Shown: positions 155 through 23,851 of the stretch, piece by piece | Layout: each line of letters starts with the position of its first letter | How positions within the stretch are numbered: the first letter of the stretch is position 1 | From: Candidatus Xenobia bacterium | GTDB taxonomy: Bacteria > Vulcanimicrobiota > Xenobia > Xenobiales > QWHO01 | Reading direction: 5' to 3' | Assembly (NCBI GenBank): GCA_045863235.1 | Contig: BTUM01000101.1 | Coordinates: forward strand, 1 to 26,073 | DNA length: 26,073 bases | Notes under the pieces: generated by a model | What the model was told of the DNA's origin: nothing | What the model saw: only the letters and a program-made list of their open reading frames with translations | The model's database searches: none | Position numbers and translations under genes: made by a program

Positions 155-203
155 GTTCATCAACTGTTCATCTGGTTGCCCCGCATTCAACGCTTCCTCA
201 ACG
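155..203 (+). promoter_or_regulatory. Shared upstream motif, copy 1 (heptamer direct repeat plus bipartite motif)
   Basis: GTTCATC at 155 and 166 (11-bp period); GTTCAT(166)-N18-ACGCTT-N4-AACG(203); 63 nt before the GTG start at 267. Confidence 0.55.
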
Positions 204-266
204 CCCCGGCTCCCCGTCGAGAGACGCCGGGGCCGTTTCATGAGGCAGACAGATTCGGAGGTTACC

Positions 267-1355
267 GTGAACGCGAACTTCTTATACGAACCACCACATA
301 GTCCGCGGGATGAGAGCGAGGCTCTGCAGCTCTACTTTCGCCAGTTGCTCGAAAGCGAGGAATTGGAGCAAGCCGCTGAGGTTCTCCTTCAGCTGGCGGA
401 GATTTCCGATACCCAGGTCCGGGCTGGAATGCACGAAGTGACGAGGCTCGGGCAGTTGGAGCAGATCATGGAGAAGGTGGGACAGGGAGACAGCTGGATG
501 CGGCTGGCTCGCGTCTCCGTACTCCAAGGACTGCGCAGTATGGCCGGTCCTAACGCCGCCCCCCCCCCGACTGTGTGGTCCGACCAGCCTCGGGCTGAGC
601 TCTTCGGCGCTCTGCGCCTGAGCTACCAGTGCCGAACTCTAGCCCCGGAACGCTGGCCCAGCGCCAAAGCGATGCGGCTCTTCGCTTGCCTGGTCGGACG
701 CCAGGGAGCACCTGTCAGCTGCGCGGCCGCCATCGAGATGCTGTGGCCCGAACTGACCCCCGGTCGAGGCAGGTCTTCGCTACGCAACTGCATCTATCAG
801 ATCCGCTACGCGCTTCGCGATCTCCTGGGCTTACCGGGTGAGGGGTTGGTACGCTGTCGCATGCAGGACACCCTTAGCCTGGATGCGCGGTTTGAGACCG
901 ACGTGGACTCATTCGAACAAGCCGCTGAGCAAGCCCGCAAGCTCCAATACAATCAGCCGCTGGATGCATTGCGCCTGGCCAGTTCGGCAGACAGCCTCTA
1001 TCGCGCCCCATTCCTGGAGGGACTGGAGGATGCCTGGATCCAGCCACTGCGAGCGCGCCTGGCGGCGGCCCGGGGGAATCTGCTGCACGTGCTGGCCAAT
1101 TGTCAGCTGACCCTGGGCCATGCCCAGCTGGCCGAGCAGACCGCACGCCGCGCTCTGCAGCACGACGATCTGTGCGAGCAGGCCTGGGCCGATCTGCTGG
1201 CCGCCCAAATCGGTCAGGGTCGAGAGTCGGAGGCCCGACGCCTCTATCGCGATGCGGTGGCCCATTTCCAGAGCGAGCTGGGATTCCGGCCCACCGTCCT
1301 GGGCGAGGCATACGACCGGCTGCTGGCCCCACCCGCTTTCCGCAAAGTTAGCTAA
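267..1355 (+). CDS. SARP-like transcriptional regulator (OmpR-type wHTH + BTAD/TPR domain)
   Basis: ELFGALRL...WPSAKAMRLFACL...AIEMLWPE...SLRNCIYQIRYAL (wHTH), then TDVDSFE...LYRAPFLEG...W...ALQHDDLCEQAW...ELGFRP (BTAD). Start set at GTG 267 because GGAGG (257-261) lies 5 nt upstream; ATG 240 is an alternative. Confidence 0.85.
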   Translation: MNANFLYEPPHSPRDESEALQLYFRQLLESEELEQAAEVLLQLAEISDTQVRAGMHEVTRLGQLEQIMEKVGQGDSWMRLARVSVLQGLRSMAGPNAAPPPTVWSDQPRAELFGALRLSYQCRTLAPERWPSAKAMRLFACLVGRQGAPVSCAAAIEMLWPELTPGRGRSSLRNCIYQIRYALRDLLGLPGEGLVRCRMQDTLSLDARFETDVDSFEQAAEQARKLQYNQPLDALRLASSADSLYRAPFLEGLEDAWIQPLRARLAAARGNLLHVLANCQLTLGHAQLAEQTARRALQHDDLCEQAWADLLAAQIGQGRESEARRLYRDAVAHFQSELGFRPTVLGEAYDRLLAPPAFRKVS

Positions 1356-1378
1356 ATCAATCAAAAGGAGCCCTACAA

Positions 1379-2059
1379 ATGAACATCGCAACCGCCCCCA
1401 ATAGCAGTATCATCCATATCCCCCAGCGGTCCCAGGGTCAGATTCCCCAGGATCCCTCCACCGAACCGGTCGACCGCGTCGAGCGAGGAATCGTGTTCGA
1501 GGCTGCCAGTCGCACGATCGGAGTGGCCAGCGGTATTGCCCTGACCTTCAACCGGATGATCGTGGGCGGATGTGCCGGAGCCGGCCAGGGAATCGTCAAG
1601 GCAACCGGTCTCAAGGACGACCAGGCGGACCTCGGTTTCAAGGTTGCCATGACAGCCAACCTGGCAGCGACCGGAGCCCTGGCAGGCGGCTTCGGCTATG
1701 AGGCCCTGGCCCTCAGCCCCGCCCAGGGTGCCGCGGCGGGAGCAGTCACCAATGCTCTGATCGGTAACCAGGATTGGAAATCGGCTGCCCCGGCGTTCCA
1801 GAATCAGGTCCGCACAACCGCTGATGAATGGGTGGAGGCCAGCCTGGCCAAGCTGCCCGAGCCCATCTCCCAGGGCCAGGGGGTTGCCGCAAATGTGGCT
1901 CGGGGCCTGGTGGGAGAGGTTGTGGGGCTCTCTGCCGGCGTGTTCGCCAGCAGCGCGGTTGCCCCCCAGAGCTTTCAGGCCGGCTATGACTGGGGTACTC
2001 GCAATGTCGAGCGCCTGGCCAACTGGATGTCTCCGGCTTCTGACGAGAACAAGGCATAA
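1379..2059 (+). CDS. Hypothetical Gly/Ala-rich (glycine-zipper-like) membrane-associated protein
   Basis: 226-aa ORF with AAGGAG RBS 23 nt after the regulator stop region; several GxxxG-rich hydrophobic helices; low-complexity N-terminus MNIATAPNSS. Confidence 0.75.
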   Translation: MNIATAPNSSIIHIPQRSQGQIPQDPSTEPVDRVERGIVFEAASRTIGVASGIALTFNRMIVGGCAGAGQGIVKATGLKDDQADLGFKVAMTANLAATGALAGGFGYEALALSPAQGAAAGAVTNALIGNQDWKSAAPAFQNQVRTTADEWVEASLAKLPEPISQGQGVAANVARGLVGEVVGLSAGVFASSAVAPQSFQAGYDWGTRNVERLANWMSPASDENKA

Positions 2060-2094
2060 CGCTCCGCCATCTCTGGTCGATTCCCAGCGCAACC

Positions 2095-2128
2095 AAGGAG
2101 AGCCTGCAGCAGGCTCTCCTTTCCTTTT
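2095..2128 (+). terminator. Rho-independent terminator
   Basis: AAGGAGAGCCTGC-A-GCAGGCTCTCCTT inverted repeat followed by TCCTTTT, 35 nt after the 1379-2059 stop. Confidence 0.75.
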
Positions 2129-2182
2129 CCGGAGCTTTCCTGCGACAATCGGAAACACGAGTCGCGCCAATCAAGAGCGAGA

Positions 2183-2910
2183 TCACTTGCCGGCCGAGCG
2201 GAAAACCCCGCTTACCGGTTTGGCAGCGTTACCGGGCTGAGCAGGCGAGCCGCCCGGTAGGAGCGGTCACGCCGGCCGAGCGGTAAACCCGCCCCGCGCT
2301 CGCTTACCGGTTAGGCTGAGCAAGCGGGACACCGCCCGGTGGGAACGGTCACGCCGGCAGAGAGGTTAAACCCGCCCCCGCGCTCGCTTACCGGTCCACT
2401 CTGAGCAGGCGGGACCACCGCCCGGTGGGAACGGTCACGCCGGCACGTTAAACCCGCCCCCGCGCTCGCTTAACGGTCCACTCTGAGCAGGCGGGACCAC
2501 CGCCCGGTGGGAACGGTCACGCCGGCAGAGCGGTTAAACCCGCCCCCGCACTCGCTTACCGGTCCACTCTGAGCAGGCGGGACCACCGCCCGGTGGGAAC
2601 GGTCACGCCGGCAGAGCGGTCAACCCGCCCCCGCGCTCGCTTACCGGTCCAAGATGCAGCAGGCGGGATGCCGTCCGGTGGGAACGGTCACGCCGGCCGA
2701 GCGGTTAAACCCGCCCCCGCGCTCGCTTACCGGTCCGAGATGCAGCAGGCGGGATACCGCCCGGTGGGAACGGTCACGCCGGCAGAGCGGTTAAACCCGC
2801 CCCCGCGCTCGCTTACCGGTCCAAGATGCAGCAGGCGGGACACCGCCCGGTGGGAACGGTCACGCCGGCAGAGCGGTAAACCCCGTCCCGGGGCAGCGTT
2901 ATCTAACTGA
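2183..2910. repeat. Non-coding tandem array, about 8.5 copies of an ~86-bp unit
   Basis: Core GT(A/G)GGA(A/G)CGGTCACGCCGG at 2257, 2339, 2425, 2507, 2593, 2678, 2764, 2850 (spacing 82-86). Consensus CCGGTGGGAACGGTCACGCCGGCAGAGCGGTTAAACCCGCCCCCGCGCTCGCTTACCGGTCCACTCTGAGCAGGCGGGACCACCGC. Unit length is not a multiple of 3. Confidence 0.95.
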
Positions 2911-2973
2911 CCTGGAGGCGAGAAGCCGAGCTGGGCGCGGCGCTCTATCGGACACAGCCCGATGGGCCGAGCG

Positions 2974-3021
2974 GTTCGTCCCGGTTCACAGCTCGGTGTT
3001 CCCCAAGACGTCTCGATGACA
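2974..3021 (+). promoter_or_regulatory. Shared upstream motif, copy 2
   Basis: GTTCGTC(2974) and GTTCACA(2984); GTTCAC-N18-ACGTCT-N4-GACA; 61 nt before ATG 3083. Confidence 0.5.
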
Positions 3022-3082
3022 ACCACAAGTCTCTGGCAATGCATGATCGCCCAACCCAAGCAACCAAGGAGGATTCCTCGCC

Positions 3083-3661
3083 ATGATCATCACCAACACC
3101 GCCCTCCCCCGGATGGCATCCCGGGCCCTGAGTGAGCCTCCCCCGCCGCCCGAGCCCCCGCCGCCGCCCGAGCCCCCGCCGAGCGAACCCAAAATCTACT
3201 TTCGCGACAGCGCCCGCAGTGGTCGTCGTGACCTTCTCCTGGGAGTCGCCCTGGCGGCTGGGACGCCCGGAGTGCTTCCGCCCACCGCCGGCAAGCTGGT
3301 GGGCGGAATCGTGGGCGGACTGGGCCTCATCTCGGGCTACGGCGAGGTGCGCGAAGGGATGCGCCGCTCCGATGTCCACCAGGTGCTCGACGGCGCGCTC
3401 CATATGGGGATCTCGGTCTCCTTGCTGGCGGTGGCGGCTGTCTCCAGCCCTCTGGTAGGGGCCTTTCTCAGCACCGGCGGCTACACGCTGCTGGCCGGCA
3501 AGATGCTCTACGACCATCCCAAGGACGTGCTCGACGTTGTCGCCCTGCAGCCGCTGGGACTGGTCCGGGATGCGGGCCGCAGCATTTGGCTCGAGTTCCG
3601 GCCCGAGCCCAAGCCCGAGAATCCCACGCCAGCGCCGGCCGAACAGGAGAAGCAGCCGTGA
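3083..3661 (+). CDS. Hypothetical membrane protein with N-terminal poly-Pro tract
   Basis: AAGGAGG RBS; MIITNTALPR start; EPPPPP repeats; 3-4 Gly-rich hydrophobic segments. Confidence 0.75.
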   Translation: MIITNTALPRMASRALSEPPPPPEPPPPPEPPPSEPKIYFRDSARSGRRDLLLGVALAAGTPGVLPPTAGKLVGGIVGGLGLISGYGEVREGMRRSDVHQVLDGALHMGISVSLLAVAAVSSPLVGAFLSTGGYTLLAGKMLYDHPKDVLDVVALQPLGLVRDAGRSIWLEFRPEPKPENPTPAPAEQEKQP

Positions 3662-4050
3662 ACATGACCATCACCAACCACTCCCCGGCCCGTAGTCCCT
3701 CCCGGTCGGTCCGGCTGGCCGAAGGGGCCGCAGGTGCCATCGTTGGCGGCCTCGTGGATGGCGTGGGAATCGGCGGAGCCACGCTGATTCGCACTCCCCA
3801 GCTGGTGGGCAAGGCCTACTGCGATCTGTGGACCTCGGAGAAGACCCTGGCCTACAAATCGACGACCTCCCTCATCATCCCGGCCGTGGCCCTGCTGGCC
3901 ACTCCTCTGGCGACGGCAGTGGGGCTGGCCGTGGGCGCCTACCAGGGGGCCCAGGAGGGCTATGCCAACGGCCTGCCGGTGGCCGCCCAGCGCTCTGTGG
4001 AGATGGTTCTCTCCTATGACCAGTTCCTTCAGGACACATTGAAAGGCTGA
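3658..4050 (+). CDS. Hypothetical glycine-zipper membrane protein
   Basis: GTGA start/stop overlap with the upstream gene and AGGAG upstream (ATG 3664 is an alternative); GAAGAIVGGLVDGVGIGG and AVGLAVGAYQGAQEG segments. Confidence 0.7.
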   Translation: MNMTITNHSPARSPSRSVRLAEGAAGAIVGGLVDGVGIGGATLIRTPQLVGKAYCDLWTSEKTLAYKSTTSLIIPAVALLATPLATAVGLAVGAYQGAQEGYANGLPVAAQRSVEMVLSYDQFLQDTLKG

Positions 4051-4058
4051 TTGAGACA

Positions 4059-5573
4059 ATGCAGATCACCAACGTTCGAGTCAGTTATCTTCCTCAAGAT
4101 CCTCTGGTCAGCCGGCCGGCCGAGATGACCCTGGACAGCAGCGAAGTCGGGGACCGCCTGGAAGGCCCGCGCCTCCGAGTGGACGATGGCGAGCCGGCCC
4201 GGCCCGACGCTCAGGGAAACTACCTCTTCCAGCCTGGCACTCGCGAATTTCAGCAGGCGAACTCGCTGGTATGCGCCACCAAGACTCTGCGCCTCTTCGA
4301 GCAAGCCCTGGGGCACGAGATACCGTGGGCCTTTCGCGGCAAGCTCCAGATCCATCCCCACTACGGACAGGGCTTTAATGCCTTCTACCTGCGCCAGGAT
4401 CACTCCATCAATTTCTTCGATGGCCTGGATACAACCACCAACAAAGTGGTGGCGGGCAGCGAGTCGCTGGATGTGGTCAGCCATGAAACCGGACATGCCT
4501 TGCTGGACGCCCTCCGACCGGGGCTGGTGGGCTGGTTCGGCAGCGAACAGGCGGCTGCGTTTCACGAGTCCTTCGGCGACCTGGCCACCATTCTCACCTC
4601 GCTGCACGACCCGCACGTGCTGGACAAACTGTTGCAGGATACCGGAGGCGACCTGCGCCGGCCCAACCAGGTAGCCCGTCTGGCCGAGGAGTTGTCGCTG
4701 GGAATCAATCACGTCCACCTGGGTGGCAGCCGCCCGGAAGACTGGGCCATGCGCGACGCCAACAACAACTTTACCTACGTCCCGCCCTCCCAGTTACCCG
4801 ATCGGGCGCCACCCGAGGAGCTCTCTCGCGAGCCGCACAGCTTCAGCCGGATCTTCACCGGTGCCTGCTGGGACGTTCTGGCACGCATGACTGAAGAGAA
4901 CATGCGCCAGGGCCAGGATGCTCGCCAGGCCATTGTGGCCGCCCGCGACGCCATGCTCACGCTGTGCGCTCACGCCGTGGAGCTTGGCCCCAACCGCCTC
5001 AAGCGGCTGGGCCAGATGTCCGAGTCCATGCTCAAGGCTGACCGACGCTACCTGGCCGGCAAGTTCCAGCCACTTCTGACCGAGGTCATGACACGGCGCG
5101 GCCTGCTCTCGTCCGTCGCGCCCGAGGAGCTGCCCCCGATCCGTCTCGAGCAGATCCCCACCTCGGCGGCCGAGGCGAGGGCACTCCTGGGCGAGCAGCT
5201 GGGGCTGGGTCAACTCCCTGCCCTCAACTGCGAGTCCATCCAGCGCAACCTCCAGGGAGAGACCTTCCTCCGCTACACTCAGGTGCGCGAAGTGGAGCTC
5301 GAGCCGGGCACCTCCACCGACCTGGCCGCCAGCCTCACGCTGGGATTCGATCGCGAGGGGCGCCTCTTCCACCGGCTGTGGGAGCCGATCGACCAGGAGG
5401 CGGTGGAGCTGGCTCGCCAGGAGGTCGAGGTGCGCACCTCTCAGGGCGCCATCCGGGCCGTTCCCCCCCAGAGCTCCGCCGAGCTGATGAAAACAGACGA
5501 CGGGATCTACGCCGGTTACGTGGTCGGGTCCCCTGGAGGCCACCAGAAACTGGTGCGCATCCCTGGCGCCTGA
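4059..5573 (+). CDS. Zinc metallopeptidase, gluzincin clan (M4 thermolysin / M36 fungalysin-like), no signal peptide
   Basis: FNAFY, DVVSHETGHALLD (HExxH), FHESFGD (third ligand Glu), EPHSFSRIFTGACWD. Confidence 0.85.
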   Translation: MQITNVRVSYLPQDPLVSRPAEMTLDSSEVGDRLEGPRLRVDDGEPARPDAQGNYLFQPGTREFQQANSLVCATKTLRLFEQALGHEIPWAFRGKLQIHPHYGQGFNAFYLRQDHSINFFDGLDTTTNKVVAGSESLDVVSHETGHALLDALRPGLVGWFGSEQAAAFHESFGDLATILTSLHDPHVLDKLLQDTGGDLRRPNQVARLAEELSLGINHVHLGGSRPEDWAMRDANNNFTYVPPSQLPDRAPPEELSREPHSFSRIFTGACWDVLARMTEENMRQGQDARQAIVAARDAMLTLCAHAVELGPNRLKRLGQMSESMLKADRRYLAGKFQPLLTEVMTRRGLLSSVAPEELPPIRLEQIPTSAAEARALLGEQLGLGQLPALNCESIQRNLQGETFLRYTQVREVELEPGTSTDLAASLTLGFDREGRLFHRLWEPIDQEAVELARQEVEVRTSQGAIRAVPPQSSAELMKTDDGIYAGYVVGSPGGHQKLVRIPGA

Positions 5574-5614
5574 ACCGGGCGCCACAACACCATGCAAGAT
5601 TTCAAGGAGGAACC

Positions 5615-7594
5615 ATGAACGTTACCCCAACCCGAGACCTGGGCGCGCATCGGCCCGGCGAGCTTCTGGTGCGACTCAACGAGGGAGCCAGTCTGGCAAC
5701 AGACGTGGTCTCCGACCTCGAGGCTCAGATCGTCGATCGTTTCGAGCTTCCCAACCCCGGCTCCAGCCTGGACGGGGGGGCCACCGTGCTGCACCTGAAG
5801 CTGCCCGAGTCCACCAGCACCGAGCAGGCTATCGACAGATTGGAGAACGATCCTCGCGTCCGCTACGCGGTCCCCAACCACATCTTCGAGCTCGACGCCC
5901 AGGAGCGCAGACCCGACGACCTCTCCCAAGAGCTGTGGGGCATGCAAGCCATCCATGCTCCCGAGGCCTGGGCCGTCACCACCGGCTCGAACAACGGTCC
6001 GGTCATCGCCGTCCTGGACACGGGGGTGGATCTCGCCCACCCCGATCTCATGGCCAACCTGTGGACCAATGCGGGCGAGATTCCCGGGAATGGGATCGAT
6101 GATGACGGCAACGGCGTGGTGGACGACGTCCACGGCTACAATCCCAACGACAACTCCGGCAATGTCCAGGACGGGCACCGCCACGGCACCCACACGGCAG
6201 GGACCATCGGGGCCGTGGGAAACAACGGGCAGGGCGTGGTGGGCGTCAACTGGCAGGCCCGCATCATGGCGATCAAGATCTTCGATGACAACGGCCGGAC
6301 CAGCGCCGCCAGCATCATCAAGGGGCTCGAATATGCCAACAAGATGGGCGCCCGCATCACTTCGAACTCGTGGGGTGGGACTCAGTACAACGAGGCGATC
6401 AAGGACGCCTTTGCGGGCTCTTCAGCCCTGCACATCGCGGCCGCCGGGAACAGTCGCACCAACACCGACCTGAAGGGTCACTACCCCAGCACCTACGACC
6501 TTCCCAACATGGTCAGCGTGGCGGCCACCACCCGCAACGACTCACGGGCCAGTTTTTCCAACTACGGAGCCAGGACGGTGGATCTGGCCGCTCCCGGGCA
6601 GGACATCGTGTCCACCGTCCCGGGGGGCGGAACCGAGTCCCTCAACGGCACCTCGATGGCCTGCCCCCACGTCAGCGGCGTGGCCGGGCTGATCGCCACC
6701 CTCTACCCCGAGGCCAGCAACGAGGAGATCAAGAGGCGCCTGCTTTCGGGCGTGGATCAGGTCGACTCGCTGCAGGGCCTGGTGGCCACCGGCGGACGCC
6801 TCAATGCCGCCCGCAGCCTGGAAGACGACAAGACCGCCCCGGGCAGTCCCGGGCAATTCCAGGTGGAGTCCAGCGACTCGCGCAGTCTGACTCTGACCTG
6901 GATCGCCCCCGGGGATGACCAGAGCCAGGGGACGGCCGCCCGTTACGACCTGCGCGTCAGCGACCGGCCCATTACCGATGAGGAGAGCTTCCAGAAAGCC
7001 CGGGCCGTGCCCGTGACCGGTCCGCGCTCGGGAGGCAGCCGGGAGGAGCTCGTCCTGCCGGTCCGTCCCTCGGAGTCGGCCCAGGAGGTCTACCTGGCGC
7101 TCAAGGCCAGCGACAACGTGGGCAACATCTCGCCGATGGTCAGCGCCCGGGGCCAGGTGAGACCCTCCCTGAAAGCCTTCCAGGACGGCGGGCCTGCCTC
7201 CTGGACCATCCAGGGCGACTGGGCCCAGATCGAAGGAGGGGTCTGGACCGACAGTCCTGGCGGAGACCTGGTGCCAGGTCGGAACAGCGTTCTCTCCAGC
7301 CAGCCCTTCTCGCTCAAGGGCCTGAAGAACGCCACGCTGGTCTTCGACGCCAAACACGACCTGGATGACAGCGGTGGCGACGTGGTCTGGGTCCAGGTCA
7401 GCAAGGACGGGGGCCGCAACTGGTCTCCGGTGGGCTCGCTCACCGGCCGGTCGGACTGGCAGCCGCACGGGATGGACCTGTCAGCTTACGACGGCAAGAA
7501 GATCCAGTTCCAGTTCACCCTGGTTTCTGGGGGCTTTGGACGGCGCGACGGGATCTACCTCAAGGACCTCAAGGTTCTGGGAGAACCGCGCTAA
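5615..7594 (+). CDS. S8 subtilisin-like serine peptidase with prodomain, FN3-like and C-terminal jelly-roll domains, no signal peptide
   Basis: Catalytic triad VIAVLDTGVD / HGTHTAGTIGA / GTSMACPHVSG; DDDGNGVVDDVHG loop; LTWIAPGDD...YDLR FN3-like segment. ATG 5615 follows AAGGAGG. Confidence 0.92.
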   Translation: MNVTPTRDLGAHRPGELLVRLNEGASLATDVVSDLEAQIVDRFELPNPGSSLDGGATVLHLKLPESTSTEQAIDRLENDPRVRYAVPNHIFELDAQERRPDDLSQELWGMQAIHAPEAWAVTTGSNNGPVIAVLDTGVDLAHPDLMANLWTNAGEIPGNGIDDDGNGVVDDVHGYNPNDNSGNVQDGHRHGTHTAGTIGAVGNNGQGVVGVNWQARIMAIKIFDDNGRTSAASIIKGLEYANKMGARITSNSWGGTQYNEAIKDAFAGSSALHIAAAGNSRTNTDLKGHYPSTYDLPNMVSVAATTRNDSRASFSNYGARTVDLAAPGQDIVSTVPGGGTESLNGTSMACPHVSGVAGLIATLYPEASNEEIKRRLLSGVDQVDSLQGLVATGGRLNAARSLEDDKTAPGSPGQFQVESSDSRSLTLTWIAPGDDQSQGTAARYDLRVSDRPITDEESFQKARAVPVTGPRSGGSREELVLPVRPSESAQEVYLALKASDNVGNISPMVSARGQVRPSLKAFQDGGPASWTIQGDWAQIEGGVWTDSPGGDLVPGRNSVLSSQPFSLKGLKNATLVFDAKHDLDDSGGDVVWVQVSKDGGRNWSPVGSLTGRSDWQPHGMDLSAYDGKKIQFQFTLVSGGFGRRDGIYLKDLKVLGEPR

Positions 7595-7605
7595 GGTAGA
7601 GCGAA

Positions 7606-7742
7606 GCGCGGAAGTCGGGCCCGTAACTTGCCGTGAAGAACCTGTTCTGAGCGCCCCCACGGGCCCGACTTCTGCGCGCAGCGGAGTTTTGCGCGCATCG
7701 CGAGAGTTTGGCACAAAACTTGACCGCGCTCCCGGAGCGCGG
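7606..7742. other. Cluster of three inverted repeats in the intergenic region (terminator, structured RNA or miniature element)
   Basis: 19-bp arms 7606-7624 and 7659-7677 (one G.T mismatch); TGCGCGCA...TGCGCGCA 7673-7697; CCGCGCTCC-C-GGAGCGCGG 7724-7742. Confidence 0.6.
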
Positions 7743-7749
7743 GGGGCCG

Positions 7750-7798
7750 GTTCATCTCTCGTTTACCTTCCCGGTCGGCATGCAACGCTGCCTTGACG
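7750..7798 (+). promoter_or_regulatory. Shared upstream motif, copy 3
   Basis: GTTCATC(7750) and GTTTACC(7761), 11-bp period; GTTTAC-N18-ACGCTG-N4-GACG; 56 nt before GTG 7855. Confidence 0.6.
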
Positions 7799-7854
7799 GA
7801 ATCGGAACCTCCACCTGGTTTCATGACCGTGAGACAAGAAAGGAGTCAGCAACC

Positions 7855-8871
7855 GTGCAGATCACGACCACCCCCTTCCCAACCCGCCCCAGCAACGCCG
7901 CCAGCCGTGCCCCGGTGTCGGGCCATGACGCCGCCACCGTAGAATTGGAGGACCGGCCCGTGCAGGCCGATACCCACTATGAGGACGGGACCCCCCGCTC
8001 CGATCTCTCCACCTATGCCCAGATCCGCACCGGCAGCCCTTCGACCTCGCCCCTGGGCAAGGTGGTGGCTGCAGCCATGCTGGGCGGAGGCCTCTGGACG
8101 GCCGCCAACATCGCCAGTCAGGTGGCTTCGGCCGGCCCGGCCGGAGTCGCCCTGGCTGCGGGCGCGCTGGTAGCGGGCTACGCTGCCGCCGATCTCTCCA
8201 GCGGGATCTTCCATCACTGGGTGGACAACTACCCCACTCCGGAAACCCCCGTGGTGGGCAAGATGGCCAAAGAGTTCCAGGAGCACCACTTCCGCACTTA
8301 TGACCTGCTGGAGGTCTCCTTCCTGGACAATTGCGTCAACGCAGGCCGATTCCTGGCGCCCGTCATGGGCCTGGTGGCCGCGGCCAACCCGCATTACGCG
8401 GTGGCAGCCAGCGCCCTGGCCTTCCTGACGGGTGGCTACCTGGCTCAGGGCTCGCATCGCTGGACCCACATGGAGAACCCGCCCCGCATCGGCAAAGTCT
8501 TGCAGAATCTGGGCCTGGCCCAGAGCAAAAAGAGCCACGCCATGCACCATCGCATGCCCTGGAGCGACTACTACTGCATCGTCAACGGCATGTGGAACCC
8601 GCTCCTGAGCAAAGTCGACTTCTGGCGCAAGCTGGAAAATGTCTACTTCCAGGCCACCGGAGCCGAGCCCAAGTCGTGGCGAGACCAGGGTGTGAAGCAA
8701 TTGGCGCTGGGCCAGATCAGCAAGCAGGAGTTTCTGGCCAACCAGAACGTCAACCGCAAAGCGTTTGGCCAGCTAATCCACCAGGAGCGCGAGTTCTGGC
8801 GCCAGCAGGACCAGGCTCGCCGGCACGAGCTGAGCGCTAACAGCCAGCCCCAACCAGGGCAGCGCCCCTGA
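7855..8871 (+). CDS. Lipid desaturase of the FAD4/CarF/TMEM189 (PEDS1) family with N-terminal extension
   Basis: ADLSSGIFHHWVDNY..PETPVVG, FQEHH, SHRWTH, HAMHHRMP..YCIVNGMWN, FWRKLE..TGAEPKSW: the His-box pattern of this family. GTG 7855 follows AAGGAG. Confidence 0.88.
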   Translation: MQITTTPFPTRPSNAASRAPVSGHDAATVELEDRPVQADTHYEDGTPRSDLSTYAQIRTGSPSTSPLGKVVAAAMLGGGLWTAANIASQVASAGPAGVALAAGALVAGYAAADLSSGIFHHWVDNYPTPETPVVGKMAKEFQEHHFRTYDLLEVSFLDNCVNAGRFLAPVMGLVAAANPHYAVAASALAFLTGGYLAQGSHRWTHMENPPRIGKVLQNLGLAQSKKSHAMHHRMPWSDYYCIVNGMWNPLLSKVDFWRKLENVYFQATGAEPKSWRDQGVKQLALGQISKQEFLANQNVNRKAFGQLIHQEREFWRQQDQARRHELSANSQPQPGQRP

Positions 8872-9885
8872 AGCTTCGGCCGCCGCCAGGCTCACGCGGT
8901 GCCTCCCGGGCTCGCGCCGTGCCTGCCGGGCTCACGAAGGGTCTCCCCGGACCCACGCGATGCCTCCCGGCAAGCGCGGTGCATCCCAGGCTCGCGCTCG
9001 GCCGCGTCCAGGCTCACGCGCTGTTCCTCCCAGGCTCACGCGCTGTGCCTGCCGGGCTCACGCGCGGCGCCTCCCAGGCTCACGCGCTGTGCCTGCCAGG
9101 CTCACGCGCTGTGCCTGCCGGGCTCACGCGCGGTGCCTCCCGGGCTCGCGCGGTGCCTCCCGGGCTCACGCTCCCCGGACCCACGCGATGCCCCCCGGGC
9201 TCGCGCTCGGCTTCCTCCGGGCGGTGCATCCCGGGCTCACGCTCGGCCGCCGCCAGACTCATGCGGTGACTCCCGGGCTCGCACGGTGACTCCCGGGCTC
9301 ACGCGCGGTGCCTCCCGGGCTCGAGCGTGCCCCGGACCCACGCGATGCCTCCAGGGCTCACGCGCTGTGCCTCCCGGGCTCACGATCGGCCGCGCCAGAC
9401 TCATGCGGTGCCTCCCGGGCTCGCGCGTACCTCCCCGGACCCACGCGATGCCTCCCGGGCTCACGCGCGGAGCCTCCCGGGCTCGCGCGGTGCCTCCCGG
9501 GCTCACGCTCGGCCGCCGCCAGACTCATGCGGTGCCTCCCGGGCTCACGCGCGGTGCATCCCGGGCTCACGCTGGGCCGCCGCCAGACTCATGCGGTGAC
9601 TCCCAGGCTCACGGCTCCCCGGACCCACGCGATGCATCCCGGGCTCACACGCGGTGCCTCCCAGGCTCACGCTCGGTGCCTGCCGGGCTCACGCGGGGGC
9701 TGGACCCGCGCGATGCATCCCGGGCTCGCGCGCAGTGCCTCCCAGGCTCACGCCTCGGTGCCTGCCGGGCTCACGCGGGGGCTCCCCGGACCCGCGCGGT
9801 GCCTCCCAGGCTCATGCGGTGACTCCCGGGCTCGCGCAGAGCCTACCGGGCTCACGCGGGTGCTTCCCAGGCTCGCGGGGCGCCT
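8872..9885. repeat. ~1-kb modular short tandem repeat (core ~22 bp) filling the gap between convergent genes
   Basis: Roughly 40-50 variants of GCCTCCCGGGCTCACGCGCGGT interleaved with CTCCCCGGACCCACGCGAT and GCTCGGCCGCCGCCAGACTCATGCGGTG modules. Confidence 0.95.
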
Positions 9886-11832
9886 CTACTTCTTGGCGGT
9901 ATGCACCTCGGCGACCACTCGGAACCCCGTGTAGTTGCTGCCCCGGTCGGGTCGAGCGTGGGCTCGGGCTGCCGAGCGGCAGTTCCAGGCGTAGCTGTAC
10001 CAGCCGCCGCCGCGCAGGACGCGCTCGGTTCCTTTCTCGGGCCCTCGCGGGTCCTTCTCGGTCTTGCCTGAGTACGGGCCGTAGTAGTCCAGGCACCACT
10101 CCTCGACGTTGCCGTGGACGTCGAGCAGGCCAAACAGGTTCGCCGCCCCCGTCTCTCCCACCGGGGCCGCCGACAGCCTGGGCTCGCTCAACACCGGTCC
10201 CTCTCCGTAAGCCTGGGTGGGATTGTAGATGGCGACCTCGGGACTGATGGTGGGCCCGAAGCAGAAGGGAGAGCTGGTGCCGGCCCGGCAGGCATACTCC
10301 CATTCGGCCTCGGTCGGCAGCCTGTAGGTGCGCCCCGAGAGCCGGGAGAGGCGACGGCAAAACTCCAGGGCGTCCTCGTAGCTGACCGAGTCGACCGGAA
10401 GCTGATCTCCGCGCGACTCGGACGGTTCGAGCACCAGGGGGGTCTTCTCCTGAGGAAGCCCGGCCACCGCCTTCCACTGCTCCTGGGTGATCTCGCGCCG
10501 GCCGATGTAGAACGAGCTGAGCTGGACGGTGTGAGGGGGCCCTTCGTGCGGCTCCGACTCGGGCTCGAGCTCGGGAACCCCCATGGTGAAATCGCCGCCC
10601 GGCAACAGAACCATTTCGATGGCCTCCGAGCCCGTCAGTTCCTCGGCGTAGCCCTGGGCCTCCCCGGCTTCGCTCCCGAGGATTCGGCCGGTGTTGTTGA
10701 GGGTTGGAGCCTCGAAGGGCATCGGGTAGAGCGTCAGCGGCGTCACCGAAGGCCCCGGGTCGGGCCTGGGGCCCTTCCAGAGCAAAACCCCCACGACCAG
10801 GACAAAAAGCACCGAAAGGACCACCAGCCCCGCCACCAGGGCCGGGGAAACCCGCCGGGAGGGGGGCAACGGCAGGGGCTCCGGGGCCGGCACGGGCACA
10901 GGCTCGAGCTCGATGGTGCCCTTCTTCTTCTCCGGGCGCTTGAAGGGCTTGATCTCCATCTCGACGGGCTCAGGGTCGGGCGCAGGGGCGGGCTCCTCCT
11001 GCTCCTCGGCCTCGGGAGACTTGCCGTCCAGCCATTCCAGAATCTGGCGCTCGGTCCAACGGGCGGACGGCTCGGGTCGGAAGCAGGCGATGAAGAGCTC
11101 TCGCCAGTCATCCGAGAGCCCCTCGTCGAGGTTGGGGCCCTCCTGCTCGGACCGGTAGGCCAGCTCCGAGGGAGTGGACCCGGCCAGGTGCGCAAACGGA
11201 TGGTGCGAGGTCAGGGCCTCGTGCAGCACGCAGGCCAGGCTCCAGACGTCGGACGCCGGCACGGGTCGACCCAGAACCCCTTCCGGGGCACCGTAGTGCA
11301 GGGTGTCCGAGCCCGCTTCGAGTCGCACCAGGTGCCCCTTGATCCGGGGCAGCTCGTAGTCGGAGAGCTTCCACACCTCCACCGACTGCACCACGTTTCC
11401 GGTGCGAAGCTCACCGTGCACGCGACGATGGATGTGCAGATACTCCAGCGCTTCGGCCAGGCTGCGGGCCAGGTTGCGCACCTCGTTCTCGGGCATCTGG
11501 CGCACCCGGGCCAGGTGACGGCGCAGCGTGTTGTTGCTCAGCTCCACGACGCAGTAAATGCGCCTCTCCTCTTCCTCCAGCTCGCCCAGGGCCTGCATGG
11601 CAACCAGGCCCGGGTGTTTGAGGCCCAGCAGCGATTGCAGCTCCTCATTGACCTCATCGCGCAGGGCGTTGGGCTTGAGCTGGAAGACCTTGACCGCGCA
11701 ACGCCCCACTCCTCGACCCATGGCCAGAATCTCGGCTTCGAAGACCCGGCTGAACTGGCCTGACCCCTGATACTGGGCCAGCCGGAAGCGTCCCTGCAGC
11801 TCGAGCCCGATCAGCTCCTCGGGCTCGATCAC
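9886..11832 (-). CDS. Ser/Thr kinase-like domain (probable pseudokinase) + TM helix + FGE-sulfatase (SUMF1-type) domain
   Basis: GSGQFSRVF, AVKVF, HPGLV, VHGELRTGNV, KLSDYE, YGAPE, SDVWSL; Pro/Glu linker; TM LVAGLVVLSVLFVLVVGVLLW; FTMG, EITQEQW, YRLPTEAEWEYACRAG, NLFGLLDVHGNVEEWC, RVLRGGGW, GFRVV. Confidence 0.9.
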   Translation of the reverse strand: MIEPEELIGLELQGRFRLAQYQGSGQFSRVFEAEILAMGRGVGRCAVKVFQLKPNALRDEVNEELQSLLGLKHPGLVAMQALGELEEEERRIYCVVELSNNTLRRHLARVRQMPENEVRNLARSLAEALEYLHIHRRVHGELRTGNVVQSVEVWKLSDYELPRIKGHLVRLEAGSDTLHYGAPEGVLGRPVPASDVWSLACVLHEALTSHHPFAHLAGSTPSELAYRSEQEGPNLDEGLSDDWRELFIACFRPEPSARWTERQILEWLDGKSPEAEEQEEPAPAPDPEPVEMEIKPFKRPEKKKGTIELEPVPVPAPEPLPLPPSRRVSPALVAGLVVLSVLFVLVVGVLLWKGPRPDPGPSVTPLTLYPMPFEAPTLNNTGRILGSEAGEAQGYAEELTGSEAIEMVLLPGGDFTMGVPELEPESEPHEGPPHTVQLSSFYIGRREITQEQWKAVAGLPQEKTPLVLEPSESRGDQLPVDSVSYEDALEFCRRLSRLSGRTYRLPTEAEWEYACRAGTSSPFCFGPTISPEVAIYNPTQAYGEGPVLSEPRLSAAPVGETGAANLFGLLDVHGNVEEWCLDYYGPYSGKTEKDPRGPEKGTERVLRGGGWYSYAWNCRSAARAHARPDRGSNYTGFRVVAEVHTAKK

Positions 11833-16368: not shown

Positions 16369-16586
16369 AATCCGCTCCTCGAAGGTGCCGTAGCGACCCT
16401 CAATCTCCGCCATCTTCTGCCCGCAGGTGAGTCGCGTCGGACCGACAGAAGTGCGCTCGCGACGAATTCTCGATGAGAGCTTGTTGCGGGGTGGGATCGC
16501 AGCCGCCCCCTGGACACACGGTTTTCCGGCTGCGCTCTTGGTTTTTGACTACGAAGCCGGGCAGTTCGAGGCTGTTGGAGTACTGA

Positions 16587-17987: not shown

Positions 17988-18000
17988 CGAAAGCTGGCCA

Positions 18001-18333
18001 ATGCTCAAGCGTCTTCTTCTGGTCATCATGCTTCAAGTTGCGGTGCTGGCTCAGACTGGACAACCTCGCAGCGACCGGGTCGTCGGCTATTGGGTCTCAT
18101 CGAGCGGAAAGGAGGTCACCCTGGCCTACTCAGGCCAGCCGGAGACCTTTCTGGTCCAGGTCTACAACCAGAGCGGCCCGCCCACCGAGTACACCGCCCA
18201 CTGGACCTCTGACAGCGAGTTCTATTACGATGCCCGGGACGAGCGCGTGCTGGGCCTCTACCGCCCCGACTCGGACAGCGTGAAGATCTTCAACCAGAAG
18301 CGCTCCTGGTCGGCAGTCTGGAAGCGCCGCTGA
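18001..18333 (+). CDS. Small secreted hypothetical protein
   Basis: Sec signal MLKRLLLVIMLQVAVLA; aromatic beta-rich mature part; 13 nt and 7 nt from its neighbours. Confidence 0.75.
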   Translation: MLKRLLLVIMLQVAVLAQTGQPRSDRVVGYWVSSSGKEVTLAYSGQPETFLVQVYNQSGPPTEYTAHWTSDSEFYYDARDERVLGLYRPDSDSVKIFNQKRSWSAVWKRR

Positions 18334-18340
18334 AAGGGGC

Positions 18341-19908: not shown

Positions 19909-19963
19909 CGTCTACAGATTTACCGCGCAGGCCTGAAAGGAAGTTGATGGCGAACCTTCCGAC

Positions 19964-20293
19964 ATGACCGCTCGCCTGGCAGTCTTGCTTTTCTTCCTGG
20001 CCGCGCTGTGCGCCTGGAGTCTTTATCCGCCCTGGCGCGTCGAGCTGCTCGAGCCTGTCCCCGACGAGAGCAAGCCCACCGGCTTCACCGCCGAGCGCAT
20101 CGAGCTCCACTCGATCTTCTGGTCTCCCCCGCAGCTCTCGAACGCCGGTCCGGGGCGCCTGACGGAGGACCTGGAGTCGGACCCGGTGTCGTTTCGCCAG
20201 AGCCACATCCACTGGAAGCTGCTGTTTCTGGGCGATGGCCTGATCCTGATCGGACTGGCCCTCTCCCTCAAAGCGACCAGGCGGGTGCCTTAA
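19964..20293 (+). CDS. Small hypothetical membrane protein (two TM segments)
   Basis: N- and C-terminal hydrophobic helices flanking YPPW...IFWSPP; 4-nt convergent stop overlap with the next gene. Confidence 0.65.
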   Translation: MTARLAVLLFFLAALCAWSLYPPWRVELLEPVPDESKPTGFTAERIELHSIFWSPPQLSNAGPGRLTEDLESDPVSFRQSHIHWKLLFLGDGLILIGLALSLKATRRVP

Positions 20294-21114
20294 GGCAGCA
20301 GCTGCTTCTCGAGCTCGAGCAGAGCCTGATAGACCCGTCGGAAGGGGGGAACGTCGTCGTTGGACCACACCCCTCGCACGCGCTCCTCCCCGCCAGCGTT
20401 GACCAGCTTGATCTGGGGGCAGGCCTCGTCGGGCACGATCGGCCTCCGGGGCGGATTCACGAAGCCCAGCAGATCGTTTTGAACCACCAGCTCGAAGAGG
20501 GCGCTGGCGTTCACCTTACCCTGACCGTGGCGCCCGGCCGGTATCGTCTCCACCTCGGCCCGGCCGTCACCGTGCACGATCAGGCGGCGGCCGCCGTGGA
20601 GGCCGTGCACGTCGTCGAGCTCGAGCCGGGCCCGCTCAAAACCGTCTAGAAAGAAACCAGCGGTGGGATTCTGGCTTTCCACCTCGGCCACAGCCCGGGC
20701 CGGAGCGATCCCATCGATGACGCGAATGAAGCCAGGCGTGTACTTCCTCATCATGGCGTGATTGGTGGCCAGCAGGGGGCCGAGCAACCCATCGGTCATC
20801 GGTCCCTCGTCCAGGGCCACGTAGGTCTTGTAGCGCACCTCGCCATCGGAGTAATCGAGCTCGAAGTTGCCCACCGCCATGCCGTAATTGGCCCGGGTAA
20901 TGAACTCGGCCACAGCCGGGCGATGCTCCTGGGGGATGTTGGCGGGCAGGACTCCGTAGCAGAGCAGCTCGCGAGCGTTACGCTCGCTGACGAAGCAGGC
21001 CCAGTCGACCACTCCCGAGCAGGTGAAACGGAGGGTGGGCTTCTCGGGGTGGGCCTGGACCTCGACGCCCTTGGACTGCAGATGGTTGCGCACAAAATCG
21101 AGCAGGTATCCCAT
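20290..21114 (-). CDS. YbjN-domain protein (type III chaperone-like fold) fused to an extra C-terminal domain
   Basis: IPQEHRPAVAEFITRANYGMAVGNFELDYSDGEVRYK is the YbjN signature; C-domain LDDVHGLHGGRRLIVHGDG..VPDEACPQI. Start set at ATG 21114. Confidence 0.8.
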   Translation of the reverse strand: MGYLLDFVRNHLQSKGVEVQAHPEKPTLRFTCSGVVDWACFVSERNARELLCYGVLPANIPQEHRPAVAEFITRANYGMAVGNFELDYSDGEVRYKTYVALDEGPMTDGLLGPLLATNHAMMRKYTPGFIRVIDGIAPARAVAEVESQNPTAGFFLDGFERARLELDDVHGLHGGRRLIVHGDGRAEVETIPAGRHGQGKVNASALFELVVQNDLLGFVNPPRRPIVPDEACPQIKLVNAGGEERVRGVWSNDDVPPFRRVYQALLELEKQLLP

Positions 21115-21230
21115 AGCCCGGCGCAATTCGAGCCAGACGGTCGGTCCGCCCTGCTCAGCGCCGCGATAGACGCGAAGCTGCTCCAGGAGCAAGAGCGCTG
21201 CGGCGAACGGAACTGCGTTCCACCAAGGTG

Positions 21231-22250
21231 TCAGGGTCCCTGGCGCTCACGCGAGCGGATAAACACGCCACCCACGCGCAATCCCCCGTCCTCCACCTGC
21301 ACCGCCGCCGATGGACCGCCGGCGCTCAGGCGGCTGGCCTCCTCGCGGATGGAGCGGGCCTGCTCGCGACGATCGTGCAACAGTGGGGTCCAGCGCTCGA
21401 CCAGGTCCTCCATGCCGACCTTCGCGAAGCGCCCCCCCAGGTCGCGGCCGAGGCTGTGGCCGACCGAGCGCAGCACGATGGTGGACAGGAATCCGCCGCT
21501 GGCCGTGCCCACCAGAGCCAGCCCCAGCCCCACCGTGGGATCGGTCAGCATCGCGCCAGCCAGGGCTCCAGTCAGGGCCAGACCAAGCCCCAGCCCGATG
21601 CGCCCCCCGTTCACGGCCCAGCGCCTGGCTCGCAGACAGCCTGCCTGCATCTCTTCCAGGGTCTCTCCACGAGCCTGACCGGCCAGGCTCCGGTCGATCT
21701 CCAGCGATGCCAGCGCGGCGGCCTTCTCGGGGCCTTCCGGCAGGGCCACCACCTGAGTGCGGATCTCATCGAGCAGGCCGGTCAGCTCGTTGTCTCGTCC
21801 GGATGGCGTGGCCGCCGGCAGGCTGGGGGGCGTGGGATCCTTCCAGCGCTCGATGACCGCTCCCAGGCCGGGGGTCTGAACGTGCCGGGCGGTCCAGCTC
21901 TGAGCCCCGTCGTGGGCCAGGTGAGCGAGCACCAGACCGGGCAGAAGGCCGGCCGAGAGGCCACCCAGGATACCCAGGGGACCTGCGCCCTGAGCTGCCA
22001 GCTGCCAGGCCAGCGCGCCACCCAGCCCCAGTCCCGCCATCAGGCCCGCGCCAGCGGCCGTGCGCTCGATCAAGACGGCCCGCCCGGCCAGTCGCTCCAT
22101 TTCCTCAACGCTCTCGCCCCGTCCCGATCCCAGCACCAGCTCATCCTGAGCCAGCCTTTGCATGGCGGCCGTCTTGGAGGGCGAGGCCTCCATCCGGGAG
22201 AGATTCTGGCGCGACTGCTCGAGGCGTGCCTGCAAGACCTGGACATGCAC
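21231..22250 (-). CDS. Hypothetical membrane protein with internal duplication of a TM-hairpin module
   Basis: RGESVEEM...GLGLGGALA...VIERW repeated as RGETLEEM...GLALTGALA...LVERW; starts 9 nt after the RUS1-like stop. Confidence 0.75.
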   Translation of the reverse strand: MHVQVLQARLEQSRQNLSRMEASPSKTAAMQRLAQDELVLGSGRGESVEEMERLAGRAVLIERTAAGAGLMAGLGLGGALAWQLAAQGAGPLGILGGLSAGLLPGLVLAHLAHDGAQSWTARHVQTPGLGAVIERWKDPTPPSLPAATPSGRDNELTGLLDEIRTQVVALPEGPEKAAALASLEIDRSLAGQARGETLEEMQAGCLRARRWAVNGGRIGLGLGLALTGALAGAMLTDPTVGLGLALVGTASGGFLSTIVLRSVGHSLGRDLGGRFAKVGMEDLVERWTPLLHDRREQARSIREEASRLSAGGPSAAVQVEDGGLRVGGVFIRSRERQGP

Positions 22251-22259
22251 AGGGATAGA

Positions 22260-23777
22260 CTATTCCGACCCGCCCAAAGGTCTCTGAAACACCGCCCGGG
22301 GCCCAACAAGACTCACTCGCGGCGACGGCAGGCTGGGGGCGGCCGCCAGGTTCAGGCCCAGAACGGCAGCCCGGAGCCAGTTCCCTGATGAAGAGGGCGC
22401 TTTCCCCGCACGGTCTGGCTCGAGCCGAGACTCCGGGGGCGGCTCTTCGCCGGGGGCCGGATCCTCCCAGCGCGCCCGGATTCCGGTGTCGGAGAGGCGG
22501 ATCAGGTCGGTGCTCCAGCCGGCTTTCTTCATGTCGGCGAGCAGAGGCTGAACATCGGCCGGGGTCTGGCTCAGACTCTCCTTCACCAGCCAGCGCTCGG
22601 CTGCGGCGGTGCCCTGCTCGAGCTGCAGCCTGGCAAAGGCGTGGCTGGCCCGCAGACCCTCCAGGCGGATGATCTGGAGGGTGGCCTGCATCCGGTCCTG
22701 GGGCTCGCAGCCCTCTCGCAGCAAGACGTAGGGCTCGCCCTCGCGCAGATCGAGCAGATACTGCCGGCCTTTGTAGAGATGGCGAAGCTGCTCCCAGCGC
22801 TGGGGGTTCTCGAGCAGAGGCCGGCCCGAGCGTCCCAGAACGATCCGGTCGCGGCACCTGAGCGAAGCCATCATCGGCAGAAAGCGGTCTCGGGCGGGTC
22901 CCACCACCTGGCCCTCGCGGTCGAGGTGGTCGACCACGCGGCGCAGGCCCTGCTCGTTGACCGGGTGGTAATCGAGGTGCTTGACGAACTGGGCCATGGT
23001 TACCACTCCTAGAATCCCCACCACACCCGCCACCATCAGCGCGCTGGCGCCTCCGCTCAGGTGGCGGGCGAGCTCGAGCCCGGCCAGCCCCCCCACCAGC
23101 GAGACGACCGTGCCCTGGTTGCCGTTCTTGACCTGCAGTTCGCCCAGGTTGTCGCCCACCGCCTGGCGGGGATTGATGCTGGCCGAGGCCGCCCCGCTCA
23201 TGACTCCGGCGATGGTGCTGATGGCAAAGGCGGACAGGGTCACGGCCAGGATGCCGCCGGGGACCTGCGAGGTTACCGCGGGCAGGGCCGCGCAGGCCTG
23301 CACCAGGGTGCCGACGTTGGCGATGACCTCGCCCCCCAGGATCCAGGCCCGCGGATTCTTCATGGCCTTGTCCACGTGGAAGGAGGTCACGAAGCCGACG
23401 GCCTGGCACATCCGGTCGCGGATCATGTTGTAGGTCTGCATCCCGGCTCCGCCCCAGAGCGGGTCGAGCCCGAGGGCGGCGAACACGGCGGCGCCGACCA
23501 CGAAGCCGCCCACGGCGTGGACCAGGTCGCGGGCGCAATCCCAGGCGCGCGTGGGCAGGTAGTCTCGGCTGACCGACCGGTGCATGTCCACCGGGAAGAA
23601 CATGTTCTTCAGCAAGAGGGTACCGCTGCCCGAGGCGCGACCATTGCCCCCCTCCTGAACGAACACCTCTCCCTGCTCGTCCGCGGCATAGACGGTGGCC
23701 TTGCCGTGAACGATGTCGGTCACCTGGCGGCTGGCGCTGGCCAGGACGAAGGGGGGCCGCGTGGATTGAATCAGCAT
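22260..23777 (-). CDS. RUS1/DUF647 (root UV-B sensitive / RUSF1)-like membrane protein
   Basis: FFPVDMHRSVSRDYLPTRAWD, NPRAWILGGE, IAGVMSGAASASI..NLGELQVKNGNQGTVVSLVG, PVNEQGL..GQVVGP, IVLG, YLL, DMKKAGWSTD follow in order the remembered RUS motifs (FLPxGxPxSVSxDYL..W; PKxWR; GATRA..NxAD..AK..SQ; TLN; GW). Confidence 0.8.
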   Translation of the reverse strand: MLIQSTRPPFVLASASRQVTDIVHGKATVYAADEQGEVFVQEGGNGRASGSGTLLLKNMFFPVDMHRSVSRDYLPTRAWDCARDLVHAVGGFVVGAAVFAALGLDPLWGGAGMQTYNMIRDRMCQAVGFVTSFHVDKAMKNPRAWILGGEVIANVGTLVQACAALPAVTSQVPGGILAVTLSAFAISTIAGVMSGAASASINPRQAVGDNLGELQVKNGNQGTVVSLVGGLAGLELARHLSGGASALMVAGVVGILGVVTMAQFVKHLDYHPVNEQGLRRVVDHLDREGQVVGPARDRFLPMMASLRCRDRIVLGRSGRPLLENPQRWEQLRHLYKGRQYLLDLREGEPYVLLREGCEPQDRMQATLQIIRLEGLRASHAFARLQLEQGTAAAERWLVKESLSQTPADVQPLLADMKKAGWSTDLIRLSDTGIRARWEDPAPGEEPPPESRLEPDRAGKAPSSSGNWLRAAVLGLNLAAAPSLPSPRVSLVGPRAVFQRPLGGSE

Positions 23778-23813
23778 CGCCCCCCTATTGCACCACAGGG
23801 CGCGTCCGAGCTT

Positions 23814-23851
23814 CGTCGTCTCAGCGTCAAATCGGCTGGCGGAAGGTAAAC
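23814..23851 (-). promoter_or_regulatory. Shared upstream motif, copy 4
   Basis: Minus strand GTTTACCTTCC-N13-ACGCTG-N4-GACG, with the same three blocks and spacing as 7761-7798; preceded by an A8 tract; 36 nt before ATG 23777. Confidence 0.6.

Follow-up and report, generated by a model that had tools for sequence, protein, structure and literature searches.

Contig BTUM01000101.1 of an uncultured Candidatus Xenobia bacterium (assembly GCA_045863235.1; the whole stretch of 26,073 nt is called the window below) carries one DNA motif in front of four separate transcription units, and the question arises whether this motif is a genuine regulatory element and which protein reads it. The window is contig C101 of the source genome G000 (8.36 Mb, 66% G+C, 97.6% complete, 9% intergenic). 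The element is real and conserved, and is composed of two repeat modules, A and B. The reading favoured here, with a probability of about 0.6, is that it is an activator site pair for the small Streptomyces antibiotic regulatory protein (SARP)-type regulator encoded beside it (267–1355, + strand), added to a global box; this would make a positively autoregulated sub-regulon nested in an export regulon.

The element and its two modules

The four motif strings of the first-pass annotation were recovered with zero mismatch to GTTYAY-N18-ACGYYK (166(+), 2984(+), 7761(+) and 23851(−)); as had been described, they end 63, 61, 56 and 36 nt before the start codons at 267, 3083, 7855 and 23777, and three of them have an extra upstream copy GTTC(A/G)TC (starts 155, 2974 and 7750; 11, 10 and 11 bp upstream), which is absent at 23851(−). 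The reported lack of a site before trpC (score −6.3) and the GNAT gene (−17.6) was also borne out in a matrix scan that included the window sites; among 19 window gene starts, a score above 0 was obtained only at the four motif-led ones, with the sites themselves included in the matrix.

Counted from the first G of GTTYAY (second A block) as position 0, the element comprises module A (GTTCAT-N5-GTTYAY; blocks GTTCAT and GTTYAY at −11 and 0) and module B (WTCRACG-N4-WTCRACG; blocks at +20 and +31). WTCRACG recurs at +20 and +31 with an 11-bp period in 23 aligned sites, a heptameric direct repeat of the kind found in SARP-type operators. Unconstrained iteration converged on a far larger family, tGTTHACA repeated at 11 bp; the free matrix drifted into this generic family (231 sites), an 8-site iteration was overfitted, and both were replaced by fixed-block models. 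Exact module A has 16 copies, 16/16 intergenic (12 without module B, 3 with it, 1 unclear). Since module A thus occurs mostly without module B and free iteration reaches the generic family, module A is regarded as a member of a global box; the GTTYAY half therefore belongs to a genome-wide box, and the ACG pair is the specific part. Module B was counted at about ten sites in G000: the four in the window and one each on C103, C147, C44, C32, C16 and C118. Borderline sites of generic-type or ambiguous architecture were left uncounted (C5+178183, C26, C110, C1-189855, C64, C22-98770, C39). The A–B spacing of 20 seen in G000 becomes 21 at two promoters of the relative G004; on C32, C16 and C44 the second A block is poor and module B is full.

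The generic box gave 772 intergenic matches at 11-bp spacing vs 164–341 at six other spacings, and exact GTTHACA-N4-GTTHAC gave 29 matches vs 1 control in G000; the exact pattern is present in 4/4 genomes of family f1, 13/13 of f2 and 2/13 of the mostly small f3 genomes. The generic box stands before the flgB-like, hook/rod-like and adjacent genes of C27, with no module B there, and is enriched before genes with a DxVxLS motif (20/261 vs 56/2976; odds ratio 4.3, p 1e-6); most genes with the generic box lack DxVxLS. Among the 13 OmpR-type genes listed, which come into question for the module-A factor, a moderate upstream box was found only at C28:74271–74945. The GTTHACA 11-bp direct repeat, noted throughout G000 and also in G001–G030, marks hundreds of promoters, where a sigma-70-type −10 follows 27/38 nt later; large Xenobia genomes have it and small ones nearly lack it.

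Conservation and genome scans

A held-out matrix was trained on 13 sites, the window sites and their orthologues being left out; it placed sites 166, 7761 and 23851 at ranks 2, 6 and 9 of 16,698,644 genome positions. In seven orthologous promoter pairs the identity was 170/196 in the blocks vs 80/147 in the spacers (p 3e-11; the pairs are kin, not independent). The regulator's own site is conserved in G001, G003 and G004 and is thus kept in 4/4 genomes in which the gene was found, down to 63–64% protein identity; the desaturase site is retained at the 80%-identical G004 orthologue (A–B spacing 21), and the RUS1-like site at the 65%-identical orthologue in G003.

The genome scan with a matrix, proposed by the first-pass annotation as a check, had a divided outcome: three sites stood near the top when held out, and the bare core was not enriched (GTTYAY-N18-ACGYY, 20 matches genome-wide vs 10–43 at spacings 10–26). 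ACG-N8-ACG alone was likewise unenriched in upstream regions. With a matrix from the four window sites alone, six matches of at least 18 bits were obtained elsewhere in the genome (4/6 intergenic); the fixed-block scan gave 11 matches at the true spacing vs 0–7 at 24 shifted spacings, a control that is not independent because the training sites were included. Shuffling of the window gave a mean of 1.16 sites vs 4 seen, and 3/100 shuffles reached 4 (a post hoc and weak comparison). No site was found at paralogous loci (13 further desaturase, 12 RUS1-like and 12 metallopeptidase loci; 1.5 kb past the match covered); among 15 desaturase loci examined, the site was present only at the window gene and its 80%-identical G004 orthologue.

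Promoter geometry

Strong −10 hexamers of the generic family are most frequent 27/28 nt downstream of the second block, which places the generic box near −50/−39. When 21 specific sites are compared, sequence outside the motif is most −10-like at +58/59, and +69/70 forms a second peak; counted from module B, +58/59 is the same register as that of the generic box to its −10. A −10-like hexamer at +58/59 or +69/70 was found in 14/14 non-orthologous sites vs a shuffle mean of 2.3 (the rule was set post hoc), and a start codon lies at +70/71 in 4/21 sites. From these phases the start site is predicted at core+70/71, with module B at about −50/−39 and module A at about −81/−70, one turn further at the regulator's own promoter. 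The three sites within positions 1–10000 of the window have weak phased hexamers and no sigma-70 consensus promoter, as in a suboptimal promoter. Leaderless genes look common in this genome: 62+33 strong −10 boxes lie 12–13 nt before starts vs fewer than 10 at most other distances.

Site 1 (+) has module A at 155–160 and 166–171 (GTTCAT twice, 11-bp period, both hexamers identical in the G001, G003 and G004 orthologues) and module B at 186–192 and 197–203 (TTCAACG and CTCAACG, 11-bp period; held-out rank 2 of 16.7M), the latter being a likely, predicted autoregulatory SARP site; a further GACG copy lies at 223–226, and phase analysis predicts a weak −10, TTTCAT, at 236–241 and a start site at about 248. 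Site 2 (+), the divergent one, has A blocks GGTTCG/GTTCAC at 2973–2989, B blocks CAAGACG (3004–3010) and GATGACA (3015–3021), and a predicted −10 CATGAT (3042–3047). At site 3 (+), the A blocks GTTCAT (7750) and GTTTAC (7761) are followed by the B blocks TGCAACG (7781–7787) and CTTGACG (7792–7798) and a predicted −10 TTTCAT (7819–7824). Site 4 (−) lacks the first A block and consists of GTTTAC (23851–23846), the B blocks TTTGACG (23831–23825) and GACGACG (23820–23814), and a predicted −10 TGCAAT (23792–23787).

The candidate activator

Gene 267–1355 (+) carries the best-scoring site and encodes a small SARP-type regulator of 362 aa with an N-terminal domain of about 100 aa, an OmpR-type winged helix and a BTAD domain. 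The BTAD domain was found at residues 211–343 (PF03704, E 6.6e-18); the Pfam Trans_reg_C match fell below the cut-off (E 0.012), and the winged helix N-terminal to BTAD is seen in continuous alignments with EmbR (E 1.4e-5) and AfsR (E 1e-4) over residues 115–356. The AfsR DNA-contact residues W74, P79, R87 and R94 are conserved (alignment vs PMC10936776), and the recognition helix GRGRSSLRNC-YQ-R is nearly invariant in eight homologues of 63–93% identity. A metagenome scan returned four loci, all 91–93% identical to the regulator and adding no diversity.

Four of the ten sites lie on the regulator's 26-kb contig, i.e. on 0.3% of the genome (chance by length 2.5e-6, a value inflated by clustering of related genes), and a second site lies on the regulator contig of G004. 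The N-terminal domain of the regulator occurs in 4/44 genomes of the class, all of one genus; the module-B pattern gave 15 matches vs 1 control in the five genomes of this genus, and for the remaining 39 genomes the figures are 4 vs 5.

According to the favoured model, the small SARP would bind module B and activate the weak −10 promoter of its own gene and of about nine other units. By analogy with SARP/OmpR biology, each 11-bp repeat would hold one protomer, the protomers lying head-to-tail, and together they would recruit RNA polymerase to a poor promoter. A global regulator would read module A and the SARP module B, so that, with separate readers, the promoter would need two inputs; self-activation of the SARP would give a switch-like response. 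The proposal of the first-pass annotation that the 267–1355 SARP co-regulates signal-less proteins is supported by the conservation of its own site, co-location, genus co-occurrence and promoter geometry, and had to be revised in that the motif is two modules and site 2984 is divergent. Autoregulation, which had been included in that proposal, is suggested by the conserved site before the gene, with the small SARP as the putative factor.

Several observations weigh against this model. Site 2984 is weak (held-out rank only 1069 of 16,698,644) and fits module B poorly (−1.6 bits; left out of training); it is kept in the protease-operon orthologues of G001, G003 and G004 despite its weak score, and is a divergent member of the set. 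Between the strong repeats and the predicted −10 there are about 20 nt, so that these repeats lie 10–20 bp further up than in canonical SARP boxes, whose 3′ repeat ends 8 bp before the −10 in the description given in PMC10936776; at the canonical position only 9/21 sites have a RAC(G/C) copy, and it is weak. On the −10 matrix AACGCT at +23 scores 1.9 vs 2.0 for the +58/59 hexamer, and the −11 A is missing from many +58/59 hexamers (TTTCAT). The base-reading residues T88, R92 and K95 of AfsR are N, Q and Y in the regulator. G002 has sites, and the regulator was not found there (65% complete). Co-occurrence counts as one event because it is confined to one genus, and the module-B pattern of the genus comparison was written from that same genus. 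The genome holds about 20 SARP-domain paralogues (19 matches in one search). Since there are so many SARP-domain proteins, and since a STAND-TPR-SARP gene stands inside a motif-led operon of a relative, we infer the factor and name the small SARP as the candidate.

Two minor observations concern the regulator and its surroundings. One homologue (P0003) is annotated with an extra N-terminal stretch like the desaturase's export leader; the start may have been mis-called, or a leader may have been fused to the protein. A Ser/Thr kinase fused to an FGE-sulfatase domain is encoded at 9886–11832 (−), with no motif upstream; by analogy with AfsK/AfsR it is a possible SARP-phosphorylating kinase.

Alternative explanations

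The paralogues raise the question whether another SARP reads module B. A large STAND-ATPase/TPR/SARP protein (G000 C31:52020–54737; 905 aa), ligand-sensing and AfsR-like, could be the reader, the small SARP being its target or cascade partner; AfsR-type cascades are known, as outlined in PMC10936776. This protein has the closest paralogous SARP domain in G000 (37%) and, which tells against the small SARP, the closest recognition helix among the paralogues (8/15 identical); its G004 orthologue moreover is the last gene of a motif-led run, behind desaturase, RUS1-like and 281-aa genes (gaps 4, 11 and 12 nt), and a further site lies 3.6 kb upstream. The explanation is to be taken seriously, but is rated unlikely: no site is found near the STAND-TPR-SARP gene in G000 or G001 (15- and 14-kb loci), whereas the small SARP carries one in 4/4 genomes. 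That no specific factor exists, and that one global OmpR/SARP-type regulator binds all four blocks with module B as a low-affinity or inverted GTTHAC variant, has a slim chance. Module B does retain those positions that are most conserved in the generic box (T, A, C) as well as its register to the −10, and the bottom strand of module B looks like module A (the mean score being −0.4 bits inverted and −9.3 direct); however, its fixed deviations (TCRACGCT) are conserved at unrelated promoters, and it is confined to the genus of the small SARP, whereas the generic box spans families f1 and f2.

Under the alternative-sigma reading, also advanced by the first-pass annotation, the core itself would be the promoter (−35 GTTTAC, 17-bp spacer, −10 (A/G)ACGCT, start near core+35). 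The hexamer-17-hexamer geometry is textbook-like, A24 is invariant and T28 is present in 18/23 sites, the +23 hexamer reaches its 1.9 on the −10 matrix, and 20 sigma-70 region-2 genes are found in the genome. This reading is nevertheless quite improbable because the predicted start site is some 70 nt downstream of the core, where four start codons at +70/71 have no ribosome-binding site; it leaves unexplained why the ACG block has a tandem partner at 11 bp, and it has to face the full module B of C32, C16 and C44 behind a poor second A block and the 12/16 exact copies of the A pair that stand alone. A Pho box (PhoB/PhoP) or a LexA box of GTTC-N7-GTTC type, the latter an alphaproteobacterial type, can practically be dismissed, although site 1 contains an exact GTTC-N7-GTTC and module A resembles the Streptomyces Pho box GTTCACC quoted in PMC7040171: the targets are neither phosphate nor SOS genes. 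The Pho-box outcome foreseen by the first-pass annotation (matches mainly at pst/pho genes) did not materialise, the 97.6%-complete genome having no match to the PstS family or PhoU; the LexA/SOS box was rejected as no site precedes recA or the three lexA-like genes.

Predicted target genes and their predicted export

The regulator gene is followed after 23 nt by 1379–2059 (+), which encodes a 226-aa leader-bearing membrane-type protein without Pfam match and is probably co-transcribed with it. Site 2 leads a target operon at 3083–7594 (+) for proteins of 192 and 128 aa, a 504-aa HExxH metallopeptidase-like protein (Peptidase_M4 match only E 0.006) and a 659-aa subtilase with a MAM domain; their leader percentiles are 0.985, 0.980, 0.985 and 0.881. 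Site 3 precedes a lipid desaturase-domain protein of TMEM189/PF10520 type with an export-type leader (7855–8871, +; E 1.1e-43). Site 4 precedes a RUS1/UVB-sensitivity-domain protein, likewise with an export-type leader (22260–23777, −; PF04884 E 2.3e-22, PF24160; percentile 0.995), and, 9 nt downstream, a gene for a 339-aa protein with a C-terminal VGGV-type motif (21231–22250, −), probably co-transcribed with it. Outside the window, the C44 unit comprises an acyltransferase followed by a type I polyketide synthase (PKS) and a condensation domain; several targets have no Pfam match. A desaturase and a RUS1-like gene belong to separate units in G000 and to a single motif-led operon in G004 (the RUS1-like gene there being only 35% identical).

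A leader model was trained on 212 genes outside the target set that have a DxVxLS motif or a VGGV motif at the C-terminus. The first genes of the target units, 9/9, are at or above the 97th percentile for this N-terminal leader of the lineage, and the comparison of 14 target genes with 6670 background genes gave p 4e-10; a strongly hydrophobic N-terminus is seen in none of the nine first genes (hydropathy over 10 residues not above 1.5). To be set against these figures, the target starts were chosen by hand and the background starts automatically, and one window gene without a site also scores 0.958. One flagellum-derived type III cluster was found, on C27 (FliF/G/M/N/H/I/J/O/P/Q/R, FlhA/B, FlgB/C-like, FliK), and would represent the apparatus of a type III regulon; G000 gave no flagellin match and no motor MotA candidate, the only MotA/ExbB match adjoining ExbD- and TonB-like genes.

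Export of the targets by this apparatus, independent of a Sec signal, is predicted from the leaders with about even odds. The targets (proteases, a lipid desaturase, the acyltransferase-PKS unit, a RUS1-like protein and unknowns) would then be a sub-set of the substrates of a flagellin-less, flagellum-derived apparatus whose own promoters appear to carry the global box. A wider scheme is put forward as a tentative and rather doubtful extension: Xenobia may use a two-tier code in which one master 11-bp box at hundreds of promoters serves the apparatus and its substrates, and about 20 signal-sensing SARPs each add a private repeat pair for an effector sub-set; the window might then hold an effector module that amplifies itself and is directed at eukaryote-like targets, both lipid and protein, with SARPs borrowed from the antibiotic-activator design.

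Comparison with known systems

As summarised in PMC10936776, PMC10972967 and PMC7040171, SARPs bind 11-bp-period repeats near the −35 of suboptimal promoters. The nearest likeness is with Streptomyces SARP operators (the AfsR afs box at afsS; ActII-ORF4, DnrI, PimR, PapR2), with which the present system would share an activator of winged helix plus BTAD and 11-bp repeats; module A matches the AfsR consensus CGTT(T/C)ATCGNN in the form printed in PMC10972967, the TCA triad referred to in PMC7040171 often occurs in both modules, and one target unit combines acyltransferase, type I PKS and condensation domain. It differs in the non-actinobacterial host (Eremiobacterota), the extra N-terminal domain and the base-reading residues, in two repeat pairs 20–21 bp apart with strong repeats predicted at −50/−39 and not at −40/−19, and in that most targets are scattered leader-bearing proteins, one biosynthetic cluster not being the pattern. 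The targets do not lie in a biosynthetic cluster of the regulator: 1/10 G000 units is PKS-type, and it is on another contig.

The HilA box is a TTTCAT-type hexamer repeat with an 11-bp period. Unlike the Salmonella HilA, PIP box (HrpX/HrpB) and hrp box systems, the apparatus here is flagellum-derived and without flagellin match, and the resemblance to type III secretion master boxes is most likely convergent. OmpR-family direct repeats of PhoB/PhoP and CtrA type have the same 11-bp period and a hexamer similar to the GTTHAC box; unlike PhoB/PhoP systems, pst/phoU were not found and the box precedes export-apparatus and lineage-specific genes.

A winged helix on tandem repeats is a well-known mechanism class; what is new, within the literature searched, is the host, the design with two modules and the probable export of the targets. 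For an uncultured class on which that literature gave no regulon study, the analysis offers a predicted regulon together with a promoter map and names a candidate activator. SARP-type control would reach past Actinobacteria and antibiotic clusters and take in proteins that are probably exported, and a larger genome-wide box common to the export apparatus and leader-bearing genes is exposed. A predatory or host-interacting lifestyle is suggested for a related family in the account of PMC9259500; this lifestyle and the effector repertoire become testable without cultivation.

Other observations

The cluster at C27:54348–79252 has duplicated FliG, FliN and FliQ; behind its type III genes are three tandem, identical-looking genes for 81-aa Gln/Ala-rich proteins with a generic box upstream, candidate filament or needle subunits. 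Besides full FlhA, six extra partial FHIPEP matches were obtained (C80, C3, C1, C106, C107 and C24; 5/6 to the C-terminal part). The pattern [IVL]x[IVL]GG[VI]x[LIV] occurs in the last 25 residues of about 100 G000 proteins, 88 of them within 10–19 residues of the end, the product of 21231–22250 included. Leader-bearing families are expanded in G000 (8 desaturase and 9 metallopeptidase matches, 3 RUS1-like loci), and caleosin and animal-type haem peroxidase genes adjoin other motif sites. Locus L107:5094–14627 (G004 C1) contains a motif-led acyltransferase gene and the motif-led run of desaturase, RUS1-like, 281-aa zinc-peptidase-like and STAND-TPR-SARP genes. In the window, a terminator-like hairpin lies at 2095–2121 (+), and intergenic tandem arrays directly follow motif-led units at 2236–2883 (86-bp unit x7.7) and 8886–9886 (degenerate 20–22-bp unit x48).

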